Origin: a virus
DNA: 64,000 nt
Virus record (IMG/VR): IMGVR_UViG_3300025138_000015
Reading direction: 5' to 3' (one strand)
Part shown: positions 20,824-37,690 of the stretch, one piece after another
How the letters are laid out: each line of letters begins with the position of its first letter
Position numbering within the stretch: the stretch's first letter is position 1
Translations under genes and position numbers: made by a program
Notes under the pieces: generated by a model
Told to the model about the DNA's origin: nothing
Databases searched by the model: none
Seen by the model: the letters and a program-made list of their open reading frames with translations, nothing else

Positions 20824-21023
20824 GAGTCTTTGGAATACTTTTCTTTCCTTGGTATAATCTTAGTTTTGTCTTTATGCATCTGAGTAGATGCGTGTGAAGG
20901 TGTTTCTTTTCTAGCTTTTACTTCTGGTTTCTTTTTACCAAATGCGAGTTCCCAACCGTCAGCATAGGCATCTTCGTTAGAGTTCCTTCTCTTAGAACCT
21001 TTTCCCCCATGCCACTCATTCAT
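20820..21023 (-). CDS. Small basic hypothetical protein
   Basis: WHGGKGSKRR motif; coupled to the bS21 stop. Confidence 0.65.
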   Translation of the reverse strand: MNEWHGGKGSKRRNSNEDAYADGWELAFGKKKPEVKARKETPSHASTQMHKDKTKIIPRKEKYSKDS

Positions 21024-21256
21024 TATCTTGGTCTATAACCTTTTTGTGAAGCCCTTTTTGCATCAAGTTTCTTTCGTCTTTTGATGTCCTGATTTCTTTG
21101 ATTCTTTGTATCGTTAGGTTTTTCATGATATTGTCTATCACGAACCTCTTGAACTATACCTGCCCTCTCACATTCTTTCTTAAATCTCCTAAGCATTCTA
21201 TCGAAAGGTTCTTCCTGTCGATTCTTAGGGTTGATTTTTGGTCTCACTTCTGGCAT
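21023..21256 (-). CDS. rpsU: 30S ribosomal protein bS21
   Basis: [32 protein letters not shown] matches the S21 consensus (E. coli [32 protein letters not shown]); AGGAG RBS. Confidence 0.93.
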
Positions 21257-21276
21257 AATTCTCCTGTTTTAAATAA

Positions 21277-21440
21277 GTGCATAGTCGCCCCACGCTTTAC
21301 AGCATCCCGCTCTATACCGATTATTCCGCTATTAGCCAATAATCTTTCCCTTACTTGGTGCCCCCATTTCTGTCCACGGTCCAAGTCTGCCCTTGTTCTT
21401 GCATCACTCATACATAATATAAACACAAGGGCACCCAACT
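21277..21440 (-). ncRNA. Candidate structured RNA between gp32 and rpsU
   Basis: GC-rich intergenic region with four consecutive hairpins and an alternative pairing. Confidence 0.5.
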
Positions 21441-21446
21441 CAAAGA

Positions 21447-22346
21447 TTAACTGTCTTCAGCTAATCTTTTGAAGTAATCCATCGCGTCGTCGCCGTCACT
21501 TGTTTGTTCAGTTGACGATTCTGCTGATGCGATTACAGGTTCAGTTGCAACACTTTCAGTGTTTACATTTCCCCAAGGCACTTCCTCTTGGTCTTCTGCA
21601 ATACTTTCTGCTGTGCTACCTGATACTGCACCTGATAGACCTAACACTCTATCAAGTTTCTCTTTGAGTTCGTCATAAGACTTGAACTCGTCTGGAGAGA
21701 TTACTTCACTTAAAGAATGAACTTGACTAAATGTAGAGTTAATCATTGCTTCATCACCTAACGGAGATGTAGAGTCGAACTCTGATTTGTCGTAGTTCCA
21801 GTAACCATCAACTTTTCTGATTTTGATTTTAAAGTTTGCACCTTCGGTCATATCAAATGGGTTGATTGCACTTTCATCTTCAAATGCTGGAGAGATTGCT
21901 TCTTTGAGTTGTTCAAAGATTTTCTTTCCAAATCTGTATTTGAAAACTCTACCTTCATTGTCTGGATTTTTAGGGTCTGAAACAACATAGACATTTGAGA
22001 CATAGTGAAGTCTACGCTTCTGCTTTCTCGCACTTTCTTTGTTTGCTTCAATACCTGTATTCCATAATGTAGTATTGTATTCAGACACAGGGTCTTTTTT
22101 ATTAAGAGTCGTTAGAGACTTCTCAATATACCACCCACCAGGTCCTTGAAATCCGTGGTCCCAATATGAAACCCATGGCATTTCTTCGCCTTCTGGAGTT
22201 GGTAAAAAACGAACTACTGCATAACCGTTACCTGATTTATCAAGTTCTGGTTTCCACATAGTATCGTCATTAAAGGATTTTTTCTCACCTTGAGCTGGTG
22301 ATGCGGTTTCCATGGCCGCTCTGAGCTTATCTAATGATGCTGACAT
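21447..22346 (-). CDS. gp32: Single-stranded DNA-binding protein gp32
   Basis: WKPELDKSGNGYAVVRFLP, HGFQGPGGWYIE, YWNYDKSEF, acidic tail DDAMDYFKRLAED. Confidence 0.97.
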   Translation of the reverse strand: MSASLDKLRAAMETASPAQGEKKSFNDDTMWKPELDKSGNGYAVVRFLPTPEGEEMPWVSYWDHGFQGPGGWYIEKSLTTLNKKDPVSEYNTTLWNTGIEANKESARKQKRRLHYVSNVYVVSDPKNPDNEGRVFKYRFGKKIFEQLKEAISPAFEDESAINPFDMTEGANFKIKIRKVDGYWNYDKSEFDSTSPLGDEAMINSTFSQVHSLSEVISPDEFKSYDELKEKLDRVLGLSGAVSGSTAESIAEDQEEVPWGNVNTESVATEPVIASAESSTEQTSDGDDAMDYFKRLAEDS

Positions 22347-22423
22347 TGTATTCTCCTATTATATTCGTATAACATTGTATTTGCATTTTATTAAACAGTA
22401 CAAACCTATGCACTGCCTAGTCC

Positions 22424-22452
22424 ATTATAAGACTTACATAGTGTCCTGTCAA
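22424..22452 (-). promoter_or_regulatory. Consensus sigma70 promoter for gp32
   Basis: TTGACA-17 nt-TATAAT. Confidence 0.88.
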
Positions 22453-22482
22453 CCAGGTTTTCTGTAAAACTTATAAAGTCCT

Positions 22483-22498
22483 GGGTATATTTATACCC
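22483..22498 (-). promoter_or_regulatory. Late promoter TATAAATA embedded in a palindrome
   Basis: GGGTATAAATATACCC. Confidence 0.75.
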
Positions 22499-22508
22499 AA
22501 AATTGGTA

Positions 22509-23099
22509 CTACTCACACAAATCTATTAGTAATGATTTGTATTTCACTCGGTTGAATTCCACGAATGATTTGTATTTGTTTATTTTGACATGAATTCCAG
22601 GATAAATGATTCTCTCTGATATCAATCTATCCCAATCTTTAGTGAATCCTATAATACCATCCATTATACAGATTGTTTCTAAAGATACTTTCTTTGCCAT
22701 AAACTCTTTTAAAAGAATAGGGTGTTGTCCGTTTTTAACTTCTAACACCTTCTGAATCTTCCTTTTACGAAGTAAATCGCTTACTTCGGTTTCGAATAGA
22801 TAAGATAACTTTTGATTATTCTTTTTCCATTCTTTGTAAACTTTAACACACTCATCACTCAATAAGTCTCCTGCCCACAAATCTTTTTTAGAAAGGTTTG
22901 CAATATAGAAATCTTGTAGTTCGTGTTTGTATGTTCTAAACAGTTTACCAAAATGATATCTGTCCTTTCGTTTGAGAAAGGACTTTATATCTGCTTTGAC
23001 TTTGCCATTATACTTAACAAAGTCATAGTCGTTAGAATAGAAGTGTAATTTTATACCAAGGTATAAAGTGTATGCATCATATCCTTCACGACTCGTCAT
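22509..23099 (-). CDS. gp59: Helicase loader gp59
   Basis: YTLYLGIKLHF..DYDFVKYNGK, RKDRYHFGKL, HPILLK, SLET motifs. Confidence 0.92.
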   Translation of the reverse strand: MTSREGYDAYTLYLGIKLHFYSNDYDFVKYNGKVKADIKSFLKRKDRYHFGKLFRTYKHELQDFYIANLSKKDLWAGDLLSDECVKVYKEWKKNNQKLSYLFETEVSDLLRKRKIQKVLEVKNGQHPILLKEFMAKKVSLETICIMDGIIGFTKDWDRLISERIIYPGIHVKINKYKSFVEFNRVKYKSLLIDLCE

Positions 23100-23407
23100 T
23101 AAGTAATGATTTTCTTTTCAGGTGGTGTTTGAATTAATGGTTCTTCTTTACCAATATTCGCAACTGCAGTTTGATGTGCCTCTGCTACCATTTCATTACA
23201 CTCTGATACGAATACATAAGTTTGTACAACCATAGATTCAGGATTTTCTTTTCCTGTCACTGCGACTCCTTTAGCAAACCCCATACCACCTTCTGGATTC
23301 TTAACAATCATTTTCGGATTTTTAAGAGTCAATGGTTCAGTCTTTGCAAGTTCCCCTACATACTCTCCAGTAAAAGTCACAACGGTGACTACATCTCCTT
23401 TTTTCAT
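23099..23407 (-). CDS. Hypothetical protein (possible Sm-like beta-barrel)
   Basis: GDVVTVVTFTGEYVGEL..LTLKNP pattern; AGGAG RBS. Confidence 0.55.
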   Translation of the reverse strand: MKKGDVVTVVTFTGEYVGELAKTEPLTLKNPKMIVKNPEGGMGFAKGVAVTGKENPESMVVQTYVFVSECNEMVAEAHQTAVANIGKEEPLIQTPPEKKIIT

Positions 23408-23418
23408 AATATCTCCTA

Positions 23419-23661
23419 TTATTTTTTAGTGTCAAAGAAACCTGATAAGGTTGCTTGACTATTAGTTCCACGATTTACCATATTTAAACCTGTTGCCTCT
23501 GCTTCTAACTTCTCCTTTAAAGGTGGAGATAAAAGTCTTTTGGCACTTTCAGGTTCTAATTGGTTCTCTTCACATACTTTAAGTATAGCAGACATTACAT
23601 CTGATTTACCATAACGGCATATCTTCTCTACTTTTTCTGTAAATTCTTTTTTTGATATCAT
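23419..23661 (-). CDS. gp33: Late transcription co-activator gp33
   Basis: AILKVCEENQLEPESAKRLLSPPLKEKLEAEATGLN motif. Confidence 0.88.
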   Translation of the reverse strand: MISKKEFTEKVEKICRYGKSDVMSAILKVCEENQLEPESAKRLLSPPLKEKLEAEATGLNMVNRGTNSQATLSGFFDTKK

Positions 23662-23928
23662 CTAAATTTCTCCAACTTCGTAAGTGGTATCGAAACCACC
23701 TTTTCTCATAGTCCACATATCTTCGTATGAGTCAAGTGTATCTAAATCACAAATAAGGTCATTGATTGCATTTTGTTTATCGTCTGAAAGTTCTTCAATC
23801 TCATCTTCAAGGAAAGACATGAACTCTTCTTCTGTGACTCCAATCTCTGTCAACATTTCTGTTTCAACTTCCTTTTGATTAGCAATCTTAGTTTGATGCC
23901 ATTCGTTTTCTATAAATCTAATTCCCAT
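23662..23928 (-). CDS. Acidic hypothetical protein
   Basis: Tightly packed ORF with GGAG RBS. Confidence 0.65.
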   Translation of the reverse strand: MGIRFIENEWHQTKIANQKEVETEMLTEIGVTEEEFMSFLEDEIEELSDDKQNAINDLICDLDTLDSYEDMWTMRKGGFDTTYEVGEI

Positions 23929-23929
23929 T

Positions 23930-24598
23930 TTATACTCCGTATATGTTTTTATATTGTTTTCTTAATTGAACTAAATCATCAATGTAGTCTAAAGGATTAC
24001 ATGAGAATAATTGAAAAGCATTAAGACCTTCTACTGCTACTAGAGCAACACATTCTTGTACTGCCTGTCCTGTCAACTCTTCTACCATAAGTGCATATGC
24101 AGTCATTTGAATAAACCATGGTTTTGCCATGTACTCTTCTTTATACTTACCACTTGTTTTGAAATCTATAATACATAATTGTTCATCTAAGATACCGACA
24201 CAATCAACACGACCTGCCATTTCCAGATTTGGTGAGAACAAAGGTGCCTCTAAAGCAAGAGGTATAATTTCATCTAATACAGGTTGCATTGCATTGAACA
24301 TGCCTCGTTGTAAATCATTCTCTATAACAATATCTTTCTCAGCACGAAGATAGTCTTCTACTAATTGATGAAAGTTTGTTCCTCGTTTTGTTGCTGATGC
24401 TGTAATCTTGTTTGCAGTCTCTTCACCAACTCGTTTTCTCCAGAGTTTGATGTGTTCTCTATTTAAAAGACCTGTGACTGTTGTGACTGAAGGATACTTT
24501 GCTTCCATACCCTCGAACTGATACATTCTTTTACCGTCTTCACTTACAGTCTTTGCTTGTAGATTTTCTAAATCTGTTATTTCTATAAAATTTTGCAT
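23930..24598 (-). CDS. PD-(D/E)xK exonuclease (Cas4-like)
   Basis: YPSVTTV, RGTNFH, AGRVDC, IIDFKTS, Q..AY motifs; start refined to MQNFIE. Confidence 0.88.
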   Translation of the reverse strand: MQNFIEITDLENLQAKTVSEDGKRMYQFEGMEAKYPSVTTVTGLLNREHIKLWRKRVGEETANKITASATKRGTNFHQLVEDYLRAEKDIVIENDLQRGMFNAMQPVLDEIIPLALEAPLFSPNLEMAGRVDCVGILDEQLCIIDFKTSGKYKEEYMAKPWFIQMTAYALMVEELTGQAVQECVALVAVEGLNAFQLFSCNPLDYIDDLVQLRKQYKNIYGV

Positions 24599-24617
24599 TT
24601 GTTTATACATTATACTA

Positions 24618-24950
24618 CTACTTGTTGTTTTTGGATAGGCGGTTTTTAGTTTGTAAGTCAACATGTTTATTGACTATCTCTCTGGTCTTAATATCTTTTG
24701 CATCTTGTACACCAGCAATCTTATCTGCCATTGGTGAGAGTTTATGACCAGATGCAACTTTATGTAATACTTCTTTAAACCCTCCGTCAACTTTAACACG
24801 GTCTCCGTGGCCACCAACAATACTAGGAGTTCCAAGTATCTTTTGTAATAGGTGTGGATTGTCTAATTTGAATTGGTCGAGTTTGGTGTAAGACATGTTA
24901 TGTTCTTCTATTTCACCAGTCTCATTATTTAAAAAATCATATAAGGGCAT
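24618..24950 (-). CDS. FmdB-like putative regulatory protein
   Basis: MPLYDFLNNETGE N-terminus, NPHL, GFKEVL motifs. Confidence 0.65.
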   Translation of the reverse strand: MPLYDFLNNETGEIEEHNMSYTKLDQFKLDNPHLLQKILGTPSIVGGHGDRVKVDGGFKEVLHKVASGHKLSPMADKIAGVQDAKDIKTREIVNKHVDLQTKNRLSKNNK

Positions 24951-24952
24951 AA

Positions 24953-25489
24953 TTATCTCATCATAAAATGTGGAATATCTCGTTGAGTCCACTTTGCGAA
25001 ATCTTTTTTGTATTCGCGGTAGTATTTATGATAGGCCTCAATAGAGTTTCCTGGAACTTTGACATCTTCAGGCATACATTGAGGTGGTTCTGACCAAGTA
25101 CCTAATGTGATATTATCAGGTAAACAATTAAGAATGTTTCTAAGTTTAGTATCAGTTAGGTGTTCTCTCTCATATCTGTATGTGTATTCGTCACACAATG
25201 CAGTAAACATATCGAATGCATATTGATATTGAATTGCATTCTCACGCACCCACCTGGTAGAGGGATGATTGATATGTGATGCCTTGTATAAGATATCTTC
25301 TCTATCGTAATCTAATCTCCACCTTTGAATTCTACGACCACTAGATGCATCAGTGTATTGTTCACCGTCTAACATTCTATGTGCAGTGGATAACATTTGT
25401 GCATACTCGATAATCATCTTAACTACATGTTTATCACAATGTAGTTTTGCACTGACTTCGGGTTCTTCGTGTAAGTAAAATAAATTCAT
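24953..25489 (-). CDS. Pyrimidine-dimer DNA glycosylase (DenV)-related protein
   Basis: MNLFYL...HCDKHVVKMIIEYAQMLSTAHR, YKASHINHPS, PPQCMP motifs. Confidence 0.75.
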   Translation of the reverse strand: MNLFYLHEEPEVSAKLHCDKHVVKMIIEYAQMLSTAHRMLDGEQYTDASSGRRIQRWRLDYDREDILYKASHINHPSTRWVRENAIQYQYAFDMFTALCDEYTYRYEREHLTDTKLRNILNCLPDNITLGTWSEPPQCMPEDVKVPGNSIEAYHKYYREYKKDFAKWTQRDIPHFMMR

Positions 25490-25791
25490 AGTTCCTTGAT
25501 TTCTTGTAGAATAGATTCTACATTATCCCATGCAAGGTGTCCAACGACATCTTGTGTTATAGGAGTATGGTATGTTATTTCACCTGTTTTGTCAACCGTG
25601 AAATCTAAGACTGCAAGTTCCCATAATCCATTCTGACCACCATAACTGAAATCGTGTTTCACTACAGAGGCACCATAATCATTGCTGAACTTATAACGAT
25701 GTTGAACACCATTATTAATATAGTCCGTGTTTAAGAGAAACTCTCTATGTCGTTTATGACCATGAACTTTGTCTATCGGTTTATCATACAT
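25486..25791 (-). CDS. Conserved phage hypothetical protein
   Basis: FSNDYGASVV, GLWELAVL, YHTPITQDVVGHL. Confidence 0.75.
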   Translation of the reverse strand: MYDKPIDKVHGHKRHREFLLNTDYINNGVQHRYKFSNDYGASVVKHDFSYGGQNGLWELAVLDFTVDKTGEITYHTPITQDVVGHLAWDNVESILQEIKEL

Positions 25792-26153
25792 TATACTAAC
25801 TCCTTAATAATACTAACTAACACATTACCGTATTGTGCAAACCAACCTTGTTCTTCTGTTAGTGCAATACCATATTGGTCTGCAATCAGTATTGCAGTGT
25901 CGGTACCTAAGAATAGATTTCCTGCAAGTGTAAAACCTGCAACACTAATCAATAGAATCAGGTGGTCATTTGTTTTAAAACTATGAATCATATATCCTAA
26001 ACAACCAATCATTATCGCTGATAGACTATAAATCTCCATGTGAAAGTTCCCACTCATTGCAAGTGTAAGACCGGCAAATACAAATACTGTGGAGACTATT
26101 TTAAGTCCAGTCAACATTGCATTTGTTATTTTAGTTTTAGTTCTCTTAGTCAT
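25791..26153 (-). CDS. Hypothetical membrane protein
   Basis: Three hydrophobic segments; AGGAG RBS. Confidence 0.65.
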   Translation of the reverse strand: MTKRTKTKITNAMLTGLKIVSTVFVFAGLTLAMSGNFHMEIYSLSAIMIGCLGYMIHSFKTNDHLILLISVAGFTLAGNLFLGTDTAILIADQYGIALTEEQGWFAQYGNVLVSIIKELV

Positions 26154-26156
26154 AAT

Positions 26157-26312
26157 TTACTCCTTTATGTCTCTCAACCAATCCCTATAATGAACTGGAT
26201 TTTCTGTTACCTTTAAATACTCTTGGTACTCTTCTTTGTTTTCTTTTGACTTTGTCATAGCAGTAACCCAACCGTCTGAGTTATCTTGCCATGTCTTAGT
26301 ATTTTCTGTCAT
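26157..26312 (-). CDS. Hypothetical protein
   Basis: MTENTKTWQDNSDGW; in line with neighbouring genes. Confidence 0.55.
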   Translation of the reverse strand: MTENTKTWQDNSDGWVTAMTKSKENKEEYQEYLKVTENPVHYRDWLRDIKE

Positions 26313-26372
26313 AAACCTAATATGAAAGCCAAAGGGATAAAAATATATAAACCCCAAATTAATTTTTCTACT

Positions 26373-26540
26373 CTATCGAATTGTTCTTTTGTCGGCATGT
26401 TTTTCTCCTTCGTCTTCATCAAATGGACAACCATTGTGTCCTATCATTGATTTGTTTTTTTGTTCTTCTCTCCATCTTAGGAAGTCTATTGCAACCTCTT
26501 TTGATGTATGTGTAAGTGTTGATATCTTTTGTCTTTTCAT
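26373..26540 (-). CDS. Hypothetical protein
   Basis: ATG overlaps the SleB stop; IGHNG motif. Confidence 0.55.
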   Translation of the reverse strand: MKRQKISTLTHTSKEVAIDFLRWREEQKNKSMIGHNGCPFDEDEGEKHADKRTIR

Positions 26541-27052
26541 TTGTAAAATATGTGATGTGTTATTTGAACTGTTTCGTTTAAGGTATCTGCCCAATACGGC
26601 TCAACCCATAAGTTGTGGTAATGTGTTGCACCCTCTGTAATGTCTGGATACTTACCCATAAGAACATCTTGTGCAACTATATAAGATTCGTAAAATGTAT
26701 CAGTGTCTAAAGGTTCGTCTGATTTACCATCACAGAACCAACTAAACTGACATTGATTCCTAATCGGAATCATATTGCCCTTCCAGTTCTCTTTGTACTT
26801 CGCATCATATACAACACCACACACATTTTCTGGATATGCACTATGTTCCATTCTGTTAAGAACAACATGTGCAACTGCAACTTTACCTGCAAGGGGTTGA
26901 TTGCCTGCCTCGAAGTAAATGTTTTTTGCGAGACAAACATTCTCACCGTTCTCATCTGAGGCATGAAGAAGACTAGGCATTAACATGATGAACATAAGTA
27001 ATGCACCAAATCCCATACCAATTAAAAAAGCTCTGTAAGTATCACTCATCAT
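26537..27052 (-). CDS. Cell-wall hydrolase, SleB/Hydrolase_2 family
   Basis: CLAKNIYFEAG, AVAHVVLNR, CQFSW, GATHYH, HIFYK; N-terminal TM/signal. Confidence 0.92.
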   Translation of the reverse strand: MMSDTYRAFLIGMGFGALLMFIMLMPSLLHASDENGENVCLAKNIYFEAGNQPLAGKVAVAHVVLNRMEHSAYPENVCGVVYDAKYKENWKGNMIPIRNQCQFSWFCDGKSDEPLDTDTFYESYIVAQDVLMGKYPDITEGATHYHNLWVEPYWADTLNETVQITHHIFYK

Positions 27053-27152
27053 TTTTCTCCCAAGGAAAGGGTTTGTTAATATGCAACCCTATAAAAATCA
27101 TACTAAACATAATCACACATAGTAAGAAACCTCCTAAAAATCCTATTTCCAT
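27042..27152 (-). CDS. Small membrane protein
   Basis: MEIGFLGGFLLCVIMFSMIFIGLHINKPFPWE. Confidence 0.5.
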   Translation of the reverse strand: MEIGFLGGFLLCVIMFSMIFIGLHINKPFPWEKNDE

Positions 27153-27153
27153 A

Positions 27154-27360
27154 TTAACACCCACTGGTTGTGTGTGCATATGCATCGGGACAATCTTTGA
27201 CTCCACACATACATTCGTCTTCGAACATATCACCTTGATTTGGGTTCATGTCTTGTGCGTTAGTTGTTCCGTAAGTTGCAAGATTATAAACATCATCTGC
27301 TGATAACTTACCCTCTGTACATTGTGCAATTAGTTTTGCACTTTCGTAATTAAGCGACAT
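27154..27360 (-). CDS. Hypothetical protein
   Basis: GGAG RBS; CMCGVKDCPDAYAH C-terminal motif. Confidence 0.6.
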   Translation of the reverse strand: MSLNYESAKLIAQCTEGKLSADDVYNLATYGTTNAQDMNPNQGDMFEDECMCGVKDCPDAYAHTTSGC

Positions 27361-27739
27361 ATCTTTCTCCGTTATGGTTCTCACCGTTTCTATTAAAGTT
27401 ATCAAGTATCATGTCAACAACATCTGTTGCCCATATTGATTTACCACCAACATGCCATTGATACTCTTCAGTAGGAATTCTACCGTCTTTCCAATTATAA
27501 ATTGTGACTGTCTCATAGTTCCAGTCGTCATAGTCAATCTCATCAACATTATTTGCATCGTACCATTTGGTATCTAAGTACCACTCACAATTGACTTTGT
27601 CATATGGGTCTGCACTTGTGAATGTTGGTGGACCTAAAACTTGACACAACCTGTCATAGGTTGTTGTCTTATATCCTTGCAATGAAGTCCCACCTGATGT
27701 CATATCAGGAGAACACACTTCGTAATCTTTTATTATCAT
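27350..27739 (-). CDS. Conserved phage hypothetical protein (early)
   Basis: TSLQGY...LGPPT, DKVNCEW, TIYNWK, WHVGG; directly behind a promoter cassette. Confidence 0.75.
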   Translation of the reverse strand: MIIKDYEVCSPDMTSGGTSLQGYKTTTYDRLCQVLGPPTFTSADPYDKVNCEWYLDTKWYDANNVDEIDYDDWNYETVTIYNWKDGRIPTEEYQWHVGGKSIWATDVVDMILDNFNRNGENHNGERYVA

Positions 27740-27744
27740 ATTAA

Positions 27745-27797
27745 GTCTCCTTTTTCACTATAGGTATATGGTATCAAAAAGTGATACGCATTGTCAA
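27745..27797 (-). promoter_or_regulatory. Early promoter + RBS cassette, copy 1 of a 53-bp direct repeat
   Basis: TTGACA-18-TACCAT...AAAGGAG; 52/53 identical to 28377-28429. Confidence 0.85.
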
Positions 27798-27800
27798 GCC

Positions 27801-27995
27801 CTATCTTGGATAAATTGTAAATGTTGTTGCATACTCTTTGATGCAATGATGAGGTGTTCTATTGTAAACACCTGGTATTGATTTGCCTCTGTACCTAATC
27901 CTCGAAGGATTATTCTTTAGAAAGTCTAAAACGAATTTGTGGTTCCTTACATTCATAGGAAGATTGGCATATTTAATATCGTATAAATTATCCAT
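27801..27995 (-). CDS. Hypothetical protein
   Basis: RIRYRG..., C-terminal FTIYPR; GGAGG RBS. Confidence 0.55.
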   Translation of the reverse strand: MDNLYDIKYANLPMNVRNHKFVLDFLKNNPSRIRYRGKSIPGVYNRTPHHCIKEYATTFTIYPR

Positions 27996-28372
27996 TAAAC
28001 AAACCCTCCGTCTCTCTTTGTTCCTGCAATTGCACCTGAACAATAACCAGGTCCGTACATGAATCTATCACCTAATTTAAGAACAGGATAACCATCTACG
28101 AGATTACCTCTTGCTTTGTTTAGAGCAGGAGTTCCCCACCCAGCAGCGAGAAGAACATCTCCTTCTTTGAAATTTGGATTTGATTTGTTGATGAAGCCCC
28201 ATACAGAACCACCACCACCATTTGAATCATCATAAGATACTATTTTAATATACTTACGACCTGCTTTAGCAACATAATAAGCACCATCTTCGGCACAATG
28301 AGGCCACCTTTCACATTTAAGTTCAGTCAATTCTGCACAAAGTTGGTCTACATATTCGTTTAAGTCTTTCAT
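27995..28372 (-). CDS. Conserved phage hypothetical protein (early)
   Basis: GRKYIKIV, VWGFINK, GDVLLAAGWGTPALNKARGN; start refined to MKDLNE behind AGGAG. Confidence 0.75.
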   Translation of the reverse strand: MKDLNEYVDQLCAELTELKCERWPHCAEDGAYYVAKAGRKYIKIVSYDDSNGGGGSVWGFINKSNPNFKEGDVLLAAGWGTPALNKARGNLVDGYPVLKLGDRFMYGPGYCSGAIAGTKRDGGFV

Positions 28373-28376
28373 AATT

Positions 28377-28429
28377 GTCTCCTTTTTCATTATAGGTATA
28401 TGGTATCAAAAAGTGATACGCATTGTCAA
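28377..28429 (-). promoter_or_regulatory. Early promoter + RBS cassette, copy 2 of the 53-bp direct repeat
   Basis: TTGACA-18-TACCAT...AAAGGAG. Confidence 0.85.
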
Positions 28430-28431
28430 CC

Positions 28432-28509
28432 CTATAAGAATAGAACTACATATGCACATGTGAAACATAGACCGATAAATCCAATTATCATCATTCTGTC
28501 GTCATTCAT
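28432..28509 (-). CDS. 25-aa membrane peptide
   Basis: Not in track; MNDDRMMIIGFIGLCFTCAYVVLFL with AGGAG RBS. Confidence 0.5.
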   Translation of the reverse strand: MNDDRMMIIGFIGLCFTCAYVVLFL

Positions 28510-28518
28510 ATATTTCTC

Positions 28519-28695
28519 CTAAATTTCGTATGGCAAATAGTCTTCTACTATCTCTTTGACTTTCTTTTCAGAGTACCAAAGACCACTGAACATTGATTCA
28601 GTTCCATCTTCCCATTGAACATAGTATCTCTTATAACCGAATGGTCTATCTGAAAAGATTCTAATATTTCCGTATGATTCTACTAATACTCTCAT
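28519..28695 (-). CDS. Hypothetical protein (58 aa)
   Basis: Not in track; MRVLVESYGNIRIFSDRPFGYKRYYVQWEDG; ATGA overlap with the upstream gene. Confidence 0.6.
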   Translation of the reverse strand: MRVLVESYGNIRIFSDRPFGYKRYYVQWEDGTESMFSGLWYSEKKVKEIVEDYLPYEI

Positions 28696-28922: not shown

Positions 28923-28954
28923 GTTATACTCCTGTATTGTTATTAACAGTGTCT

Positions 28955-28984
28955 AGTATACTAAAAAGTGTAGGGTAATGTAAA
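28955..28984 (-). promoter_or_regulatory. Sigma70-type early promoter
   Basis: TTTACA-18-TATACT with the CACTTTTT spacer motif shared with other early promoters. Confidence 0.7.
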
Positions 28985-28990
28985 GCGGTT

Positions 28991-29239
28991 TTATAAACTC
29001 TTTTGAATGTCGTCTAATTCTTGGAGTTTCTTATTGATAATTTCCACTCTGTTAGGCCAGTAGATGTAATCCTTATCTGAATCCTTTGCAAGATTCTCTA
29101 ACAGTGGTCTTACAAAGTTATCCAATTTGTTGATTACATCCGTTGCAGTTGTAGTCTTCTCAATTATCTTTGTATCAATGGCCGCAAGTTCGTCTGCATC
29201 CATCGCTGTAAATCCGAAATCGTTATATTCTGTACTCAT
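28991..29239 (-). CDS. Conserved T4-like hypothetical protein
   Basis: DFGFTAMD, PLLENLAKD..KDYIYWPNR; CTAAATA late box 5 nt upstream. Confidence 0.75.
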   Translation of the reverse strand: MSTEYNDFGFTAMDADELAAIDTKIIEKTTTATDVINKLDNFVRPLLENLAKDSDKDYIYWPNRVEIINKKLQELDDIQKSL

Positions 29240-29243
29240 AGTA

Positions 29244-30170
29244 TTATTTAGTAAAGATGAACTCACTTAATTTGGATAAAGTTTCACCATATTGACCATG
29301 TGTATTCTGTCCTAAGAGATTGCAAAACTCTATTTGTTTTAACTCTATGTTATCAGAGTTAAGAATAGTATCAACTCTATTTGTCATAGAACAAAATTCA
29401 TACACTAGTGATTCAGATTTCTCTCCAATTTGTTTTTTAATTTCTTCTCTTGTGATTTTTTCTGCATCAAAATTATAATACTCTGTTCCATAGATTGAAT
29501 GAAACCAACATGCCTTTATAACATCTTCACTGAACTCATGCTCTTGAGCAATCTTTCCAGTGGTGAGTAAGTGTTCGAAAAAAGTTCCTCCACTGTGTTC
29601 TGCATTCTTTGTTTGTTGATAGAGATAATCTAAACATGGTGTGGTGTAATTTAGGTCAAAGTATTTAAACACTAACACTCTTCTGATATTACCGAATGTT
29701 TTACTTAGAGGTCTTGCGGCATGTAATAAACTAGAATTAAATATGAATACTCTTCCCTCTTTTGGTAATACTGATTTTATAATTTCATCATTCTCAAATA
29801 TAACAGTCTCACCACCCCAATTGATATCCCATTCTTCATTCAAATATATGATTGCTGTCTTTTGAGGAATATTTGAATTTTTAGAATCTACATGTGCCGC
29901 TGCATCATTACCAAAACAATAACCATTAATGTATGCTCGTTGAATACCCCAACCATCCATGTCTAATTCTTGGTGTATTTTTTCTAAAATTGGTGACCAC
30001 ATTTCAACAGACCTCATATCAAAATAAGTATCAAATCCGGCATCACATATGTTGTGATTCCAATGTAAGAATTCTTTTGTGTCGACATTCGAAGGCCAAC
30101 CATAGTGAAAGGGTAGAGATTGTTGTGACACTCCTCTGACCAAGTCATTTGAAACCTGTTTAACAATCAT
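29244..30170 (-). CDS. 2OG-Fe(II) oxygenase fused to an HD-like C-terminal domain
   Basis: HVD, IIYLNEEWDINWGGET, LLHAAR; C-terminal HSGGTFFEHL...FHSIYGTEYY. Confidence 0.85.
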   Translation of the reverse strand: MIVKQVSNDLVRGVSQQSLPFHYGWPSNVDTKEFLHWNHNICDAGFDTYFDMRSVEMWSPILEKIHQELDMDGWGIQRAYINGYCFGNDAAAHVDSKNSNIPQKTAIIYLNEEWDINWGGETVIFENDEIIKSVLPKEGRVFIFNSSLLHAARPLSKTFGNIRRVLVFKYFDLNYTTPCLDYLYQQTKNAEHSGGTFFEHLLTTGKIAQEHEFSEDVIKACWFHSIYGTEYYNFDAEKITREEIKKQIGEKSESLVYEFCSMTNRVDTILNSDNIELKQIEFCNLLGQNTHGQYGETLSKLSEFIFTK

Positions 30171-30748: not shown

Positions 30749-31658
30749 AATACTCCTTAACTATATCAAATGATTGTTTACCAAATAGTGAACCATCAAC
30801 ACTACATTTATTACAAGGGGACATACTTCTATTTCCCTTTATTAATTTCTTACGAATCTTTGTCATAGGTTTACTAAACCACACATCATGTAATGTGGAA
30901 TGCATCAAGTTACCTACGACATGTTCTCTGCCCCAATCGTTAGAACAAAACAATACATCTCCGTTCCAATCAACAAACATCTTGTAGAAAGGATAGTGAC
31001 ACACTTTGCCCTTTAGATTCTCTATGGTGTCGTCTTCTATTCCAACCCAATCCATAACTCCACTTCTATTGTTTAGAATAAGTCCGTGGGTTTCGAAATC
31101 ACCCCAATGCATACGATACTTGTATTTGTTTTCTGGAATATATTTCATGACTTCATCAAAGTGTTCCATTTGTTCCACTCCGTCATAAAGATTAATGTAA
31201 AGTAAATCCAATCCACTAAACTCGAACAACTCTTCTGCATATTCTCTAGTAAGTTTATCACCGTTAGTATTACATTCTATTGTTGCATAAGGAACTGTAC
31301 TTCTAAATGTATGTACGATTTCTCTGAATCTTGGGTTGAGTAGATTCTCTCCGTAACCACTTAAAGATATCTTACCTCTGAATCCATTCTCATGTAATTC
31401 CTTTCCAATGAGTTCTGCACCCTTAGGTGTCATGTGTAAGTTTCTATTTGGAAAGACTTCAGGATTTGCACGAGGACAAAACGAACATGTTCTGTTGCAC
31501 AACTCTGTAGTGTTAACTTCGACTGTAAGAATAGAACTGAGTTCATTCAGTTGGTCTTGGTCTTGTCGACTCCAATGTCTCTTTTCTTGTTCTCTTCTAT
31601 GTTCCAAGAAATCATATTGGTCTACTGCCTGAATAGGAATGTTTCTTTTATCCGACAT
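30723..31658 (-). CDS. Radical SAM / SPASM(twitch) domain protein
   Basis: CNRTCSFC motif; C-terminal C..PF...GDVLFC...GN...CNKC. Confidence 0.92.
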   Translation of the reverse strand: MSDKRNIPIQAVDQYDFLEHRREQEKRHWSRQDQDQLNELSSILTVEVNTTELCNRTCSFCPRANPEVFPNRNLHMTPKGAELIGKELHENGFRGKISLSGYGENLLNPRFREIVHTFRSTVPYATIECNTNGDKLTREYAEELFEFSGLDLLYINLYDGVEQMEHFDEVMKYIPENKYKYRMHWGDFETHGLILNNRSGVMDWVGIEDDTIENLKGKVCHYPFYKMFVDWNGDVLFCSNDWGREHVVGNLMHSTLHDVWFSKPMTKIRKKLIKGNRSMSPCNKCSVDGSLFGKQSFDIVKEYYENSNNRN

Positions 31659-32106
31659 GTACTTCTATGTACCTTTCAGTATCTAGTCCTGATTCTTTAA
31701 CAAATTGAAATTCAACAACATCTTCGTCTTCTAAATTACACCAATCTTGTGGTAGTAAAATAAATTGTGGGTCGTCTTCTTGATTGATGAGACAAGACCT
31801 AGGGTCTCCATTCTCTTTGTAGTTGTAGAGTTGAACTTCTAATGCCTCTAATGTATTACCTATTCGTGGACAAGGATAAGAGATTGCACTAATGTAAAAG
31901 TTCTCTTTCTTTTTACTGTCCAACTTTTTAAATAGATATACGGATTGTCTGAACTGTAAACCAAGAAAGATTGTTTGGTCTTCTGGCAGATTGAACCTGA
32001 GCAGATTCTTTTCAAAGGGTCTCTCTGAATAGATTCTGCTTACTTGGTCTTTATTGAATTGTGAAACGGTATACTTTCGTTTAGAAGTATCCACCATCTC
32101 TGACAT
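31648..32106 (-). CDS. Hypothetical protein (start uncertain)
   Basis: Overlaps both neighbours in the operon. Confidence 0.6.
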   Translation of the reverse strand: MSEMVDTSKRKYTVSQFNKDQVSRIYSERPFEKNLLRFNLPEDQTIFLGLQFRQSVYLFKKLDSKKKENFYISAISYPCPRIGNTLEALEVQLYNYKENGDPRSCLINQEDDPQFILLPQDWCNLEDEDVVEFQFVKESGLDTERYIEVHVG

Positions 32107-33466
32107 CATCATCACCATCTTTTTTCTCCTCGTCACTTCGAGTTGCTTCTGTTTCAGATGCACTGATGAAATCACCGTCTTCTTGCAATGATGCAATAAA
32201 CGATTCTGTTTGTTCTTCAAACTGGTCAATCATTTCTTCTTTTGAACCACTTAGTTCGAACCCTAACTTATCACCCTCTTCTTGTACTTCTGTTTTAGAA
32301 ATGTTTTCTAATTCTGACCTTGAAGGAATTGTAATCTCTTCATACTCTTCTTCTGCATCATCAATCTTTGCTTGAGCAGAGGCGAGAAGTTCTTCTTCAG
32401 TATCAAAGGTCGGAATAGTTTTCTTTTCTTCTTCTACTGGTGCAGTAATGTTTTCAGGTTCACTTACTTGTGCTTGAATGTTTGGGGCATTACCACCTGA
32501 GATTATAGGTTTAGATGTGACTTGTCCTGTAGAAACAACTGGTTCTGAATCCTCTAAACTTTCAAGTGTGTCTTCAAACTTTTCGTTGACATCTTCTAAT
32601 GCTTGTTCTGGTGAAACACCATTATAAAACATTTCATCATCTACGAAGTCTGCATCTTCATCGAAGTCGTCTGCAAAACCTATTTCAACATCTTCAAAGA
32701 CATCAGGTTCTACCAACAATTCATCGGCAGCTGCAACTTCGTTAACTTTTTCTACTTCGTCATAGAATGATTCTACTGTATCACCTTTTGGAACAAATTG
32801 TGTATCTGCATTTGGAGTTATGGTAACAGACTCTTCTTCAAAGTCTTTGAATGCCTTCTTGGCTTCTGCAACTTGATTTGCAGTTTCACCAATAAATGGT
32901 TCTTCAGGTCTTGCCTGTCTTACCATGTCCCATGCTTTAGACTTTGGCCTATCAGAGGCATTCATTTCAGCAGATGCTCTTGACTCGTCTAGTAAATCTT
33001 GTATTGGTTTAGATGTGACATTGTTCTGAACATTTGATAATGCTTCGAGTTGTGCCTGAAGAATTTTGTTTTGTTCTGCAACAATTTTTAATTCTTGTTG
33101 TGCAAGTTTCTTCGCCTGTCTTTCTGCAACAACCAGTTCATCCTTTTCTGCAAGACTAGATGCAATTAAGTCCCTTTGTTTTTGAACTTCTTCTTGTTCT
33201 AGTTCTTGTATTCTTTTAGTTGCAACTTGTACTTGGGTATTGTAATCTATAATACCTGCATTGACCTGTTCTCTGATTTGAACAAGTGCGTCTAGTTCAT
33301 CTAGTTTAAAGTTACCTGCTGATAACCCTTTCTGCATGATTTGATTAACTTGTTCTGCGTTAGCAGGTTTTAATCCTACAGTAAAGGTGTTAAGTCTGTT
33401 GGTGATTCGTTCTAACTCGGAGAGTTCCACTGTTTCACTTGCAAATGTTGATTGTTCGTCTGCCAT
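32081..33466 (-). CDS. Very acidic coiled-coil protein with a possible HeH/SAP-like motif
   Basis: Coiled-coil N-half, D/E-rich C-half, ELENISKTEV...GFELSGSKEEMIDQF. Confidence 0.7.
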   Translation of the reverse strand: MADEQSTFASETVELSELERITNRLNTFTVGLKPANAEQVNQIMQKGLSAGNFKLDELDALVQIREQVNAGIIDYNTQVQVATKRIQELEQEEVQKQRDLIASSLAEKDELVVAERQAKKLAQQELKIVAEQNKILQAQLEALSNVQNNVTSKPIQDLLDESRASAEMNASDRPKSKAWDMVRQARPEEPFIGETANQVAEAKKAFKDFEEESVTITPNADTQFVPKGDTVESFYDEVEKVNEVAAADELLVEPDVFEDVEIGFADDFDEDADFVDDEMFYNGVSPEQALEDVNEKFEDTLESLEDSEPVVSTGQVTSKPIISGGNAPNIQAQVSEPENITAPVEEEKKTIPTFDTEEELLASAQAKIDDAEEEYEEITIPSRSELENISKTEVQEEGDKLGFELSGSKEEMIDQFEEQTESFIASLQEDGDFISASETEATRSDEEKKDGDDDVRDGGYF

Positions 33467-33575
33467 AATATATCCTAAAAATCCATGGAGTGGTACTCGA
33501 CTAGAAGTTTATACATCGAAGTTAAACTAAACTCCCTTTCTTTTATGTATAGTCTCTGACCACATTAATATTTAT

Positions 33576-34094
33576 TTAAACTTGTATCTCAGGAAACGCT
33601 TCTGATGCAATTTCCTTTGTTATGTTAGGGAATGGATTCTTCTTATCCTTAACCAAGTCAATTAGTTCTGCTTCTCTATGATGCATACCTTCTAACAGTT
33701 CAATCCACATTGTCTCTCTACGAGCCTGTGGTACCTGTTCAGTCACAAAGTATTGAAACTTTTTAAACTCAAACTTTAATCCTGTTTCAGATAGTTGTGA
33801 ATCAGGTGCATCATTCTTTTTGTAAGGAGTTTGTCCTTCAGGTAATGTTGAATGAATGTTCTTATCGAACAACCACCTTAACACTTTGCTTACTGCACCG
33901 TTTCTATCATTACATATTCTTAAACCGTTTACTGCAGTTGGTATATCATCTTCTGCAATGATATTCGCTTGACATAATACTTCGTATACATCTGCTCCGT
34001 TTTGAAGTCTCACTCTTTCAGTGATTAACTCCATCTTTGGTTTGTTAGGAGCACCCTTCGGTCTTCCTCTTCCTTTTTTCTTTTCTGTTGTCAT
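33576..34094 (-). CDS. Conserved T4-like hypothetical protein with N-terminal AT-hook
   Basis: KKGRGRPKG; LPEGQTPY, RRETMWIELLEGMH..EAELI. Confidence 0.75.
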   Translation of the reverse strand: MTTEKKKGRGRPKGAPNKPKMELITERVRLQNGADVYEVLCQANIIAEDDIPTAVNGLRICNDRNGAVSKVLRWLFDKNIHSTLPEGQTPYKKNDAPDSQLSETGLKFEFKKFQYFVTEQVPQARRETMWIELLEGMHHREAELIDLVKDKKNPFPNITKEIASEAFPEIQV

Positions 34095-34097
34095 AAT

Positions 34098-34952
34098 TTA
34101 GGTCCTCACCATATTATATTGTGTAAAATCACCAATGTTGTCCATCAATTCATTCAATCTATGCTCTCTAAGATAATCAAATACTTTACCACTCGGTGGT
34201 GTAGACTCACCAAAACAGTCAAGAATATTTTCTACGACATCATCTGGTATAAATTCTAAGTCAATCAAAGTTTGATTTCTTAAATAGTTCCGATAGTATT
34301 TATCGTCCTTTTCAATGCTAATCCTGAGGTACTTATCGACTACAGGTTTTCTTAAAGGGGTTTGTCTGATACCTTCATCTAAACAATTGTCTGCTGATAG
34401 TATATTTGGTATACCGTCTGACTTATCTCCTCTGAGAATGTGTTCTTTTAGAAATGTATCTGCATCATCTGGTGCAACGAACTTGTTTAGATTAGGAGAC
34501 CATTGTTTTACATAGTCATACTTCTGCAACTGTTGGAAGTCCTTATCACCTGAGACGATTAGGACTGGTTCCTTTGAATGTTTAGTTAGAACTGCAATGA
34601 TATCATCAGCCTCACATCTTTCGACATACAGGTAGTGGTAGGGAAAGTTATCTCTTATCTCGTCTTTAACTTTCTGCAGTGTGTCGAAGATAAGTTTCCA
34701 ATCCATATCAGATGCATCTCTTGTCTTCTTACGGTTTGCTTTGTATTGTGGAAAGTATTCTCGTCTCCAAGGATTACTTGCATCAGTACATAGAACTATT
34801 TGTCCATACTGAGACGAGTATCGTTTACTGTAATTTCTTACAGAGTTTAGAATCATGTGTCTTAACATATCTTCGTTAATCTCACCATCATTCATTTTGA
34901 GTTGTGCCATCAGACCTGCTATTATGGTCTGAGTAAAATCTATTAGTATCAT
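34098..34952 (-). CDS. rnh: T4-type RNase H (5'-3' exonuclease)
   Basis: MILIDF, WRREYFPQYKANR, EADDIIA, SGDKDFQQL, GDKSDGIPN. Confidence 0.95.
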   Translation of the reverse strand: MILIDFTQTIIAGLMAQLKMNDGEINEDMLRHMILNSVRNYSKRYSSQYGQIVLCTDASNPWRREYFPQYKANRKKTRDASDMDWKLIFDTLQKVKDEIRDNFPYHYLYVERCEADDIIAVLTKHSKEPVLIVSGDKDFQQLQKYDYVKQWSPNLNKFVAPDDADTFLKEHILRGDKSDGIPNILSADNCLDEGIRQTPLRKPVVDKYLRISIEKDDKYYRNYLRNQTLIDLEFIPDDVVENILDCFGESTPPSGKVFDYLREHRLNELMDNIGDFTQYNMVRT

Positions 34953-35659
34953 TTAATCACTTTTATTAATAATGTATTCTTAGTAATTCTATTGTTTCCT
35001 TCTTTCTCTTTAGAACGAGGTATCTCGTCCATGAAACCTTTAGCAATAATATTACCACCTGATACCAGTCTATCAAGTAAAGTTAAATCTGTCAAGGTCT
35101 TTTCTATACATTCGTCTGCATCTATTATCTTACTACCATTCACTCTAAGACCACCATAGGATTTAAACATGGTAAGTTTCTTTGTGGATGTGTTGTATCC
35201 AAACAACAACGATGCACGAATGATATCCTCTGGATTTATGGATTTATATTTCTTCCACTCTGAAAGATAAGGAAGTTTCTTTACTAACTGTGCTGGGGTT
35301 TTAGGTTTAGGTGGTTTACGAACTGGTGTATACTCTGCAATATACTTTTCAATATCGGTTTCAAACTCTTTAAGTTTCTTTATAATCTTTGTCTTCTGAC
35401 CTTTAGTAAGGAAGTTATATGCCTCATCTAATTGAGGACAACCTTCTTTGTTGGTCATCTCGTATTGCATTTCTTCTGTAAACCCTTTCATGTATGCAAC
35501 AACTTTACCAGAGTAATCTAATTGTTTGAGATACTTGTACATAGAGAAAGGTATGGACTTCTTATCCATAAGAGTATCGATTTGTGCTTCGACTTCGTCT
35601 AAGGCACCAATGGCCTTATTCTTCATTCTCTCTTGTATACTAACCGTTTGCGTGTTCAT
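34949..35659 (-). CDS. Conserved T4-like hypothetical protein
   Basis: QLDEAY, SINPEDII, NRITKNTLLIKV; usual neighbour of rnh. Confidence 0.7.
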   Translation of the reverse strand: MNTQTVSIQERMKNKAIGALDEVEAQIDTLMDKKSIPFSMYKYLKQLDYSGKVVAYMKGFTEEMQYEMTNKEGCPQLDEAYNFLTKGQKTKIIKKLKEFETDIEKYIAEYTPVRKPPKPKTPAQLVKKLPYLSEWKKYKSINPEDIIRASLLFGYNTSTKKLTMFKSYGGLRVNGSKIIDADECIEKTLTDLTLLDRLVSGGNIIAKGFMDEIPRSKEKEGNNRITKNTLLIKVIK

Positions 35660-37028
35660 CGTTTCTATTTGTTAACATAAATTTACGAGCAGGATTTATC
35701 ATCAAGTTTGCTCTCTTCATAAAGTCTCTGTTAGCAAGAAAAGGTATTTGATTCCTTTTATCTAACGAAACTTCTATTTCATAAATTGTATTTAGAAAAT
35801 TTATTTCCAATAGAACGACTGGCCTTTTTTCGGCAGGTTTTAACAACTCTACATATCGATGTAGAGGTTCTTTGTATTTTACTCCTTCGGTAGTCCATGA
35901 GACTACTTTATTTTTCACGGTTAAATCATCCGCGTGCAAGGCACATGTCGTTGTATTATTACCAGTATCCATCTTAACAGTTAGTTCCTGTCCTTCAACT
36001 TCTAATGTTTCTAATACACCACATTCTGTTGCACTTCGTTTCCATGAATCTCTGTCGAGGAGATTATCTAAAACAATTTTATTAATATCACCATCAATTA
36101 CTTTGTTGATACCTTCGGTACCAGGTGAATGGTTAACTTCGATAATGAATGGTGAGTCTTTATCTCTGTTCTTTGCTGGCATAAAGTCTACACCAACCCA
36201 TTGTCCGTTCACCGCTTTGGCTGCCTGTAAGACTGCCTCTTGTTCAACTTCAGTAAGTTTAATCTCTTCAGGTTCAGAACCTTGTGAAACATTACTTCTA
36301 AAGTCGTCAAGTATCTTAGGTCGTTTCATCGCACCTATGATTTCTTTGTTCACAACAATACATCTAACATCGTAATCAACTTCAATGTATTCTTGTAATA
36401 GTATATCTGCATAAGGGTCAATCTTATAAACCAACTGAACGGTTGATTGTAATGACCTTTCTGTTTCAATCAATAGAACACCAACACCTTTACTTCCTTG
36501 TAGTGTCTTTAACACCATAGGGAACTTAGACTTCAATGCCTCATGGGCAGTCTCTATTGATTCTTTATCTGCATTTGGTATCAGTACGGTCTTAGGTTGA
36601 TTCATACCAATCTCTTGCAGTCTAAGATAACATCTAAACTTATCTGCACATACTTCAATTGTTTCTCTGAAGTTGCAAACAGGAATACCATATCTTTCTA
36701 ATTGAGATACTAAATCCAGATATGAATCTTTTTTACCAACTGCACCACGAATGATTACAACTGTATCTTCATCGATTTCAAATCCAAATGAATCATCTTC
36801 TTTGTGTATAGTTATGGTACCTTTATCTTCATCACGCATGATGAATGCACCATTGACACGACAATCATATACTTCGTGTCCTAGTTTCTCTGCAAGTTTA
36901 ACTAACTTTGCACTCGTCGCTTTAGGGTTTGACTTCTTCGGTTTTTCTGCGAGTACAACCAGACGATAAGGATTTTTAGCATCCTTATTCTCCGTTATTG
37001 TTTGCAACTCATTAAAACTTTTAATCAT
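35640..37028 (-). CDS. RimK-family ATP-grasp ligase fused to a retropepsin-like (RimB-like) protease
   Basis: DKF..Y, PKT, FPMVLKTLQGSKGVGV, QEYI, DFRSNVSQG, GVD, IEVNHSPG; C-terminal KMDTGN..ALHA, RPVV, NPARKF. Confidence 0.88.
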   Translation of the reverse strand: MIKSFNELQTITENKDAKNPYRLVVLAEKPKKSNPKATSAKLVKLAEKLGHEVYDCRVNGAFIMRDEDKGTITIHKEDDSFGFEIDEDTVVIIRGAVGKKDSYLDLVSQLERYGIPVCNFRETIEVCADKFRCYLRLQEIGMNQPKTVLIPNADKESIETAHEALKSKFPMVLKTLQGSKGVGVLLIETERSLQSTVQLVYKIDPYADILLQEYIEVDYDVRCIVVNKEIIGAMKRPKILDDFRSNVSQGSEPEEIKLTEVEQEAVLQAAKAVNGQWVGVDFMPAKNRDKDSPFIIEVNHSPGTEGINKVIDGDINKIVLDNLLDRDSWKRSATECGVLETLEVEGQELTVKMDTGNNTTTCALHADDLTVKNKVVSWTTEGVKYKEPLHRYVELLKPAEKRPVVLLEINFLNTIYEIEVSLDKRNQIPFLANRDFMKRANLMINPARKFMLTNRNDEHANG

Positions 37029-37681: not shown

Positions 37682-37690
37682 ACCACCTAT

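Follow-up and report, generated by a model that had tools for sequence, protein, structure and literature searches.

Virus-encoded bS21, a RimK-peptidase fusion and start codons at promoters in a T4-like marine myophage

The stretch of DNA described here, referred to as the window, comprises 64,000 nucleotides (nt) of the IMG/VR virus record IMGVR_UViG_3300025138_000015. Two of its genes are of particular concern. One encodes the ribosomal protein bS21 (rpsU) and the other, called RimK-B, encodes a RimK-family ligase and a retropepsin-like peptidase in one chain. The third subject is a set of genes whose ATG lies at the predicted start of transcription. A sequence-only reading of the window had joined all three into a single system that remodels the platform of the 30S ribosomal subunit. 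On balance, the analysis favors three genuine and separable features, and no single obligatory system. The leaderless architecture of the bS21-bearing T4-like phages is the most useful result; bS21 itself was already known.

The genes of the window are mostly on the minus strand, and the G+C content is about 35%. Homologs of T4 gp32, gp59, dexA, RNase H, gp25, gp2 and gp61 are present, as are five tRNAs; a scan of the window against Rfam found the tRNAs and no other family. Judged by RimK-B, Pelagibacter phage Mosig is the nearest cultured relative, its protein being 41% identical over 98% of the length. Because of the T4-type gene set and this relationship, the window is assigned by gene content to a T4-like myophage of marine origin that is a relative of the pelagimyophages. 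A megablast search with a 16-kb region against phage records gave no match, i.e. no near-identical cultured phage, and the IMG/VR fragment G001/G012 carries a RimK gene that is 100% identical to that of the window. The features discussed below are listed in Table 1.

Table 1. Positions of the principal genes, domains and promoter regions of the window
Feature	Coordinates	Strand	Details
bS21 (rpsU)	21023..21256	-	77 aa; Pfam PF01165 Ribosomal_S21 49.2 bits (cut-off 27); TIGR00030 46.2 bits (cut-off 28.95)
RimK-B, single-chain RimK-family alpha-L-glutamate ligase + retropepsin-like (RimB/RloA-type) peptidase	35640..37028	-	462 aa
RimK-B, N-terminal leader	36990..37028	-	MIKSFNELQTITE; 13 residues; like T4 capsid-targeting sequence, ends I-x-E
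RimK-B, ATP-grasp ligase domain	36054..36968	-	about residues 21-325; Pfam RimK 124 bits, residues 129-322
RimK-B, retropepsin-like PF05618 domain	35664..36041	-	residues 346-452; DTGN at 354-357 (codons 35958-35969), DTG = 354-356
gp25-like baseplate wedge gene (10636-11052), box region	11050..11065	-	TATAAATA + 5 nt + ATG
gp2-like DNA end protector gene (16110-16685), box region	16096..16112	+	CATAAATA + 6 nt + ATG
82-aa gene (28991-29239), box region	29237..29252	-	ACTAAATA + 5 nt + ATG
IscA-like gene (37349-37681), box region	37679..37695	-	late-type AATAAATA + 6 nt + ATG
59-aa membrane-like ORF (39495-39674), box region	39672..39687	-	TCTAAATA + 5 nt + ATG
191-aa gene (58170-58745), box region	58743..58758	-	TATAAATA + 5 nt + ATG
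117-aa gene (44049-44402), promoter	44400..44437	-	TTGACA-N17-TATACT + 6 nt + ATG
Deoxyribonucleotidase-like gene (48888-49385), promoter	49383..49421	-	TTGCCA-N18-TATAAT + 6 nt + ATG
gp61-like primase gene (54897-55940), promoter	55938..55976	-	TTGTAA-N17-TATAAT + 7 nt + ATG
aa, amino acids; ORF, open reading frame.

Start codons at late and early promoters

The ATG of nine genes in the window is positioned 5-7 nt past a late box (TAAATA) or a sigma70-type -10 box. The T4 late box is located at about -13 to -6 relative to +1. In many early and late transcription units of the window, the first gene starts at the predicted +1, and its message would be leaderless. The sequence-only reading had counted at least nine such genes, and the promoter geometry upholds the nine listed in Table 1. 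A tenth candidate, 27995-28390 on the minus strand, was rejected, as the start in its relatives corresponds to Met7, which follows an AAGGAG.

The counts of the motif in the window are only modestly above those in shuffled sequence (4 compared to 1.8, and 6 compared to 1.7). Each window match with a spacing of 5 nt falls on the coding strand of a long ORF, at its first ATG, and four of the 15 qualifying sites fall in one of 41 bins (Poisson P ~6e-4). With so mild an enrichment in the window itself, the leaderless design is credited because of the comparison with other phages, for which the spacing was taken as the distance between [ACT]TAAATA and the first downstream ATG that opens an ORF of 50 or more codons. 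Pooled across the relatives, the spacings form a single sharp peak at 5 nt, which holds 46 of about 140. Late starts at this distance number 4 in the window (with 2 more at 6 nt), 10 in G005, 11 in G036, 10 in HTVC008M, 5 in Mosig and 3 in Melnitz. The controls that have no bS21 contain 0 (S-RIM8), 0 (Syn9) and 1 (T4), and their spacings cluster at 21-28 nt, the usual distance for a leader with a Shine-Dalgarno (SD) sequence. An ATG 6-8 nt past a sigma70-type -10 box occurs two to six times per bS21 phage and not at all in S-RIM8, Syn9 and T4. Every T4-like phage examined that has bS21 shares the leaderless design, and the cyanophages and T4 lack it.

The geometry is retained between orthologs while the letters of the spacer vary. 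Orthologs of the gp25-like gene have the 5-nt spacing in G005, G009, G014, G015, G024, G026 and HTVC008M, those of the gp2-like gene in G009, G014, G015, G024 and G026, and those of the 82-aa gene in G005, G009, G014, G015, G024 and G026. The IscA-like orthologs of G014 and G015 start 5 nt after TATAAATA. The 59-aa ORF is conserved more weakly, with a spacing of 7 nt in G005 and an SD-led start in G009. Among the early-type promoters, a TTGCCA...TATAAT-N6-ATG unit nearly identical to that of the deoxyribonucleotidase-like gene is found in HTVC008M, and the primase orthologs of HTVC008M and Mosig start 4-11 nt after the -10 box and have no SD.

Leaderless mRNAs are known from Actinobacteria, Deinococcus-Thermus, archaea and some phage genes, such as lambda cI. 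The window genes are similar to these in having a start codon at, or 1-2 nt from, the predicted +1, which leaves no space for an SD. They differ in that the geometry is tied to a gp55-type late promoter (TATAAATA) and to host sigma70-type promoters, and is found throughout the clade. No description of a systematic leaderless architecture in bS21-bearing T4-like phages was found in the literature searched. An ATG at the +1 of late and early promoters is a countable trait that tracks with bS21 among T4-like phages, and it turns the vague notion of a 'translation takeover' into a testable idea.

The bS21 protein and the RimK-B fusion

To our knowledge, bS21 is the commonest virus-encoded ribosomal protein, yet no function has been established for it. 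The bS21 gene of the window is genuine, as had been claimed from the sequence, since it scores above the cut-offs of both family models (Table 1). It was likewise correct that phage bS21 genes are known, because bS21 has been published as a core gene of all pelagimyophages, where it is a member of no gene cluster (PMC7029224; Zaragoza-Solas 2020). The pelagimyophage protein, typified by that of HTVC008M, and the window protein belong to the same Pfam family, are encoded by T4-like marine myophages, occur clade-wide and lie outside a translation gene cluster. However, the window protein differs in being closest to gammaproteobacterial bS21 and in being followed by a coupled 67-aa basic ORF, and the window-clade bS21 shares only 28-40% identity with those of HTVC008M, Mosig and Melnitz. 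A tblastn search with the window protein missed the bS21 genes of Mosig and HTVC008M, both of which were found by a Pfam-based genome search.

The nearest cellular relatives are bS21 proteins from metagenome-assembled genomes (MAGs) of Gammaproteobacteria (47-56% identity), found by a pattern-based, alignment-driven scan that is biased by its two peptide patterns; a single-protein scan gave one match. The HTVC008M protein is reported to be closest to that of its SAR11 host (PMC6375957; Mizuno 2019). Judging by these identities, the bS21 of the window sub-clade appears to be a gammaproteobacterial-like xenolog, whereas the HTVC008M/Mosig type appears alpha-like. From these identities we infer at least two acquisitions of bS21 by phages, or one replacement. 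The HTVC008M protein incorporates into Escherichia coli ribosomes (PMC6375957). The window bS21, as a loosely bound protein of the 30S platform, most likely exchanges into host ribosomes as well.

The mode of bS21 expression appears to vary among close lineages. The window gene is SD-led, being preceded by a canonical SD (AACAGGAGAATT-ATG), whereas in G026 and G014 (L031/L032) the gene has no SD and starts 6 nt after TATAAATA. The 67-aa ORF (20820-21023, minus strand) has no family match and is kept directly downstream of bS21 in G005, G036 and G009. It overlaps the bS21 stop codon (TAATG), and is therefore probably translationally coupled to bS21. The 190-nt gap between gp32 and bS21 (21257-21446, minus strand) is relatively G+C-rich, contains a strong hairpin at its start (GCCCUUGU...ACAAGGGC) and folds somewhat better than shuffled sequences (z = -2.3); it has no match in Rfam. 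A bS21 of the window type is also found in two contigs from bacterial MAGs, L125 (JAAXIF010000105.1, 121 kb, labeled Sphingobacteriales; 76% identity) and L126 (CAZOIZ010000001.1, 111 kb, labeled Rhodobacterales; 64% identity). Because their size is that of a phage genome, both are probably phage contigs that were mis-binned.

The earlier description of RimK-B as a RimK ligase fused to a DTG protease is confirmed by the RimK subfamily model, an invariant DTGN motif and a predicted retropepsin fold. The whole protein passes the subfamily model TIGR00768 with 170 bits (cut-off 143.4), but misses the S6-glutamate ligase equivalog NF007764 (93.5 bits against a cut-off of 331). Its scores on other RimK-family models are 139 bits for MptN, 82 for CofF and 105 for the LysW-type carrier model. 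The best solved relatives of the ligase domain are the RimK proteins of Pseudomonas (7qyr, aligned over residues 104-323, E 3e-25) and E. coli (5zct). The Lys, Asp, Glu and Asn columns that bind ATP and Mg are invariant among the phage homologs.

An exhaustive homolog search gave a RimK-B family of which 34 of 45 members match PF05618; orthologs in Mosig (30.3 bits) and YerA41 (32.5 bits) pass its cut-off. The DTGN motif is invariant across the family. Compared to the Protein Data Bank, the family profile of the C-terminal domain finds RloA2 (9g59, E 5e-22), RloA (9g58, 1e-20) and 2pma (1e-18). An AF2 model of this domain calculated with a deep alignment has a predicted local distance difference test score (pLDDT) of 87.7; a shallower run with 14 close homologs (pLDDT 43.5) was set aside. 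Foldseek superimposes the model onto 2pma, 9g58 and 9g59 with template-modeling scores of 0.69-0.75, followed by HIV-1 protease and Ddi1. The C-terminal domain is thus predicted to have a retropepsin-like fold of the RimB/RloA type, with a DTG motif.

RimK-B has more than 2000 metagenomic homologs, and the nearest Atlas clusters are 91-100% viral. The ligase precedes the protease in the window and in every distant homolog of the C-terminal domain that was examined. A RimK-then-PF05618 module is also found inside proteins of 700-1325 aa (P0188, P0152, P0135 and P0222) with cytidylyltransferase-like, DUF6267 or DUF3140 domains. RpsF is a target of RimK and RimB in Pseudomonas. Polyglutamate tails are cleaved by RimB and by RloA, and the activity of RimK is stimulated by RimB (PMC11957791, PMC12239564); RimK also makes free poly-alpha-glutamate, again with stimulation by RimB. 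The Pseudomonas RimK/RimB pair and the bacterial RimBK hybrid (Little 2016, 2025; Grenga 2020) share with RimK-B the combination of an ATP-grasp ligase and a DTG peptidase of PF05618. The hybrid, however, has the protease first, and RpsF was not glutamylated by it (Little et al. 2025). Unlike the Pseudomonas Rim system, RimK-B is viral, has an N-terminal leader of 20 residues and no RimA partner, and scores below the S6-ligase equivalog. The leader-bearing viral protein, with its ligase-then-protease order, represents a novel form of the Rim system. RimK-B would add glutamate tails to a target protein and trim them, host bS6 being a candidate by homology only. A search of the ORFs of the window for a phage-encoded substrate revealed neither a Glu-rich C-terminus nor a poly-E run.

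A leader of about ten residues that resembles MKTYQEFIAE and ends in (I/L)-x-E is present in RimK-B of the window and in its orthologs. The N-termini of the latter read MKTFNEIISE, MKTFSEIVE, MIKSFSDILLKE, MIRTFNEIVLQE and MRSFSEVIRE, and the RimK-only protein of Melnitz begins with (M)TQKFSQFITE; the roughly ten residues that follow the leader are variable among RimK-B orthologs. MKTYQEFIAE is the N-terminus of T4 IPII/IPIII, and a third T4 ORF, also read from the T4 genome, begins with MKTFKEFIKE. No such capsid-targeting-like leader was found in cyanophage RimK. RimK-B thus resembles the T4 internal proteins in its MK(T/S)(F/Y)xE(I/F)(I/V)xE start, its prohead-protease site (I/L)-x-E and the late promoter upstream. 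The cargo differs, however, as T4 carries small inhibitors or the Alt ADP-ribosyltransferase, whereas RimK-B, as putative cargo, is a 50-kDa fusion of two enzymes.

The genes for the IscA-like and RusA-like proteins, RimK-B, ORF236 and RNase H form a compact run under a late box, and late synthesis is the likelier course for RimK-B. Packaging is proposed because of the T4-type leader and the late promoter that heads the run. RimK-B would enter the prohead, lose its leader by cleavage after I-x-E and reach the host together with the DNA; such packaging and injection are possible, but fall short of probable. The YerA41 homolog was found to be associated with particles by liquid chromatography-tandem mass spectrometry (PMC7354516). 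Proteins with the RimK-then-retropepsin module make up a large family that is viral almost throughout and has a capsid-targeting leader. Were RimK-B injected, it would be a host-modifying enzyme of a new kind, made in advance, that writes and erases polyglutamate. A 128-aa protein encoded at 59728-60114 (minus strand) begins with MKTFKNFLFE, very close to the T4 capsid-targeting sequence, and is likely an injected internal head protein.

Distribution of the genes and alternative explanations

All IMG/VR relatives of RimK-B that reach the bS21 position contain bS21 (11 of 27 records; the others are short fragments). Among cultured phages, every combination of bS21 and RimK occurs. Mosig carries both bS21 and RimK-B. 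Melnitz has bS21 and a RimK with no PF05618 domain, HTVC008M has bS21 and neither RimK nor PF05618, and cyanophage S-RIM8 has RimK and neither bS21 nor PF05618. Yersinia phage YerA41 has no bS21, and its RimK and PF05618 domains are fused. Two further genomes, G036 (151 kb, 83% complete) and G033 (65 kb), contain a bS21 of the window type and no RimK; PF05618 was not searched for in these two. The carbamoyltransferase, RusA-like, ORF236 and RNase H genes of G036 are all found at their usual positions, and the RimK-B slot is taken by another gene of ~770 nt (C1:84618-85386, locus L242). Because of this replacement, the gap between the RusA-like gene and ORF236 is, to judge from gene order, a site at which accessory genes are exchanged.

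Leaderless starts are as frequent in the absence of RimK, as the counts for HTVC008M and G036 given above demonstrate. Since bS21 is found without RimK (HTVC008M, G036) and RimK without bS21 (YerA41, S-RIM8), RimK-B is best described as a virus-typical accessory cassette, apparently dispensable for the leaderless design. The sequence-only reading had expected rpsU, the rimK fusion and the leaderless fraction to co-occur across related phages. Instead, RimK comes and goes independently in the four phages just named, an outcome which that reading itself had named as speaking against a three-part system. An over-reading is thereby removed, in that the ligase is accessory and not needed for leaderless starts.

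It is very improbable that bS21 and RimK-B constitute one ribosome-platform remodeling system, in which bS21 is replaced, the glutamate tail of bS6 is rewritten and initiation is shifted between SD-led and leaderless messages. The co-occurrence of the two genes in most long contigs of the sub-clade and in Mosig would agree with such a system, as would the action of Pseudomonas RimK and RimB on RpsF, and the position of the RimK gene directly after the translational repressor regA in Mosig and Melnitz. In Bacteroidia ribosomes, the pocket for the anti-SD tail is formed by bS6, bS18 and bS21 (PMC9976891). Nevertheless, bS21 and RimK are separable in both directions, leaderless starts are equally common without RimK, the ligase falls well below the S6-ligase equivalog, the characterized RimBK hybrid left RpsF unglutamylated, and the pelagimyophage study placed bS21 in no gene cluster. 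Furthermore, the primase and other early genes with leaderless starts have to be translated at a time when no phage bS21 has yet been made. There is also no support for the proposed retuning, over the course of infection, between leaderless and SD-led messages, because the early genes are leaderless too; with leaderless starts in early and late units alike, no temporal switch is indicated.

The early genes also argue against a link between bS21 alone and the leaderless design, in which a host-matched bS21 would tune the 30S subunit toward leaderless or weak-SD phage messages and RimK-B would be unrelated. This explanation is unlikely, although the 5-nt peak is present in six of six bS21-bearing T4-like genomes and in none of the three bS21-free ones. 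Ribosomes with HTVC008M bS21 gave about 5% of the control output on an SD-led GFP template (PMC6375957), the gamma-like and alpha-like types suggest repeated acquisition or replacement under selection, and the bS21 gene itself starts 6 nt after its late box in G014 and G026. However, the correlation between bS21 and leaderless starts, while real, is shallow. It is confounded by host (SAR11/OM43-type compared to cyanobacteria or E. coli) and by ancestry, so that it amounts effectively to one or two independent contrasts. The pelagipodoviruses HTVC010P and HTVC019P, which have the same host and no bS21, contain too few promoter-like sites to judge, and this control has no statistical power. About half of the window genes, bS21 included, retain a strong SD core.

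RimK-B might instead have a non-ribosomal role, as an enzyme that is injected or acts late, either making and sizing free poly-alpha-glutamate or adding and removing tails on a protein other than bS6. The synthesis of the free polymer by RimK, with its stimulation by RimB, makes this conceivable, and the capsid-targeting-like leader fits an injected enzyme. The scores on the MptN, CofF and LysW-type models, set beside that on the S6-ligase model, are consistent with a family that also acts on cofactors and carriers, as is the embedding of the module in much larger proteins with cytidylyltransferase-like and DUF6267 domains. This role is nevertheless rather unlikely, considering that the RimK subfamily remains the best-matching family, that the closest solved structures are RimK of Pseudomonas and E. 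coli, and that no ORF of the window carries a Glu-rich C-terminus or a poly-E run. A combination of all three features is highly doubtful. In T4-like phages of streamlined marine heterotrophs, it would have first genes rebuilt as leaderless, a host-matched bS21 adaptor, acquired or replaced at least twice, that favors them, and, in many lineages, a capsid-delivered RimK-B that rewrites the bS6 tail when the DNA enters, before phage expression.

Several observations weigh against the account preferred here, that of three separable features, or against parts of it. The distance between bS21 and RimK-B is fixed at ~14 kb in most long contigs of the window sub-clade, and a functional link between the two might still exist inside that sub-clade. 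The C-terminal domain of the window protein scores 26.5 bits on PF05618, just below the cut-off of 27. The promoter-to-ATG distances are read directly from the DNA, whereas the transcription starts are predicted from promoter geometry, based on the layout of the T4 late promoter and calibrated only by T4, Syn9 and S-RIM8. The regular expression for the leader was built with the N-terminus of RimK-B in view, and its match to that protein is no independent test. The YerA41 virion proteome also includes polymerases and ribonucleotide reductase, so that the homolog of RimK-B might have been carried over (PMC7354516).

Other features of the window

The carbamoyltransferase at 37691-39473 (minus strand) is read as two ORFs, an N-terminal one of 391 aa and a C-terminal one of 231 aa, that overlap by 89 nt. 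The two halves overlap in G009 and abut in G036, and in HTVC008M they are one single gene. The two-ORF arrangement may represent a split gene or a frameshift.

An identical promoter-like sequence, CACTTTTTGATACCATATACCTATA, precedes the neighboring genes 27350-27739 and 27995-28390 (at 27740-27790 and 28391-28440, respectively, on the minus strand). TTGACA is found upstream of the copy at 27995-28390, and the sequence read before 27350-27739 ends short of the corresponding position. The pair looks like a duplicated early promoter.

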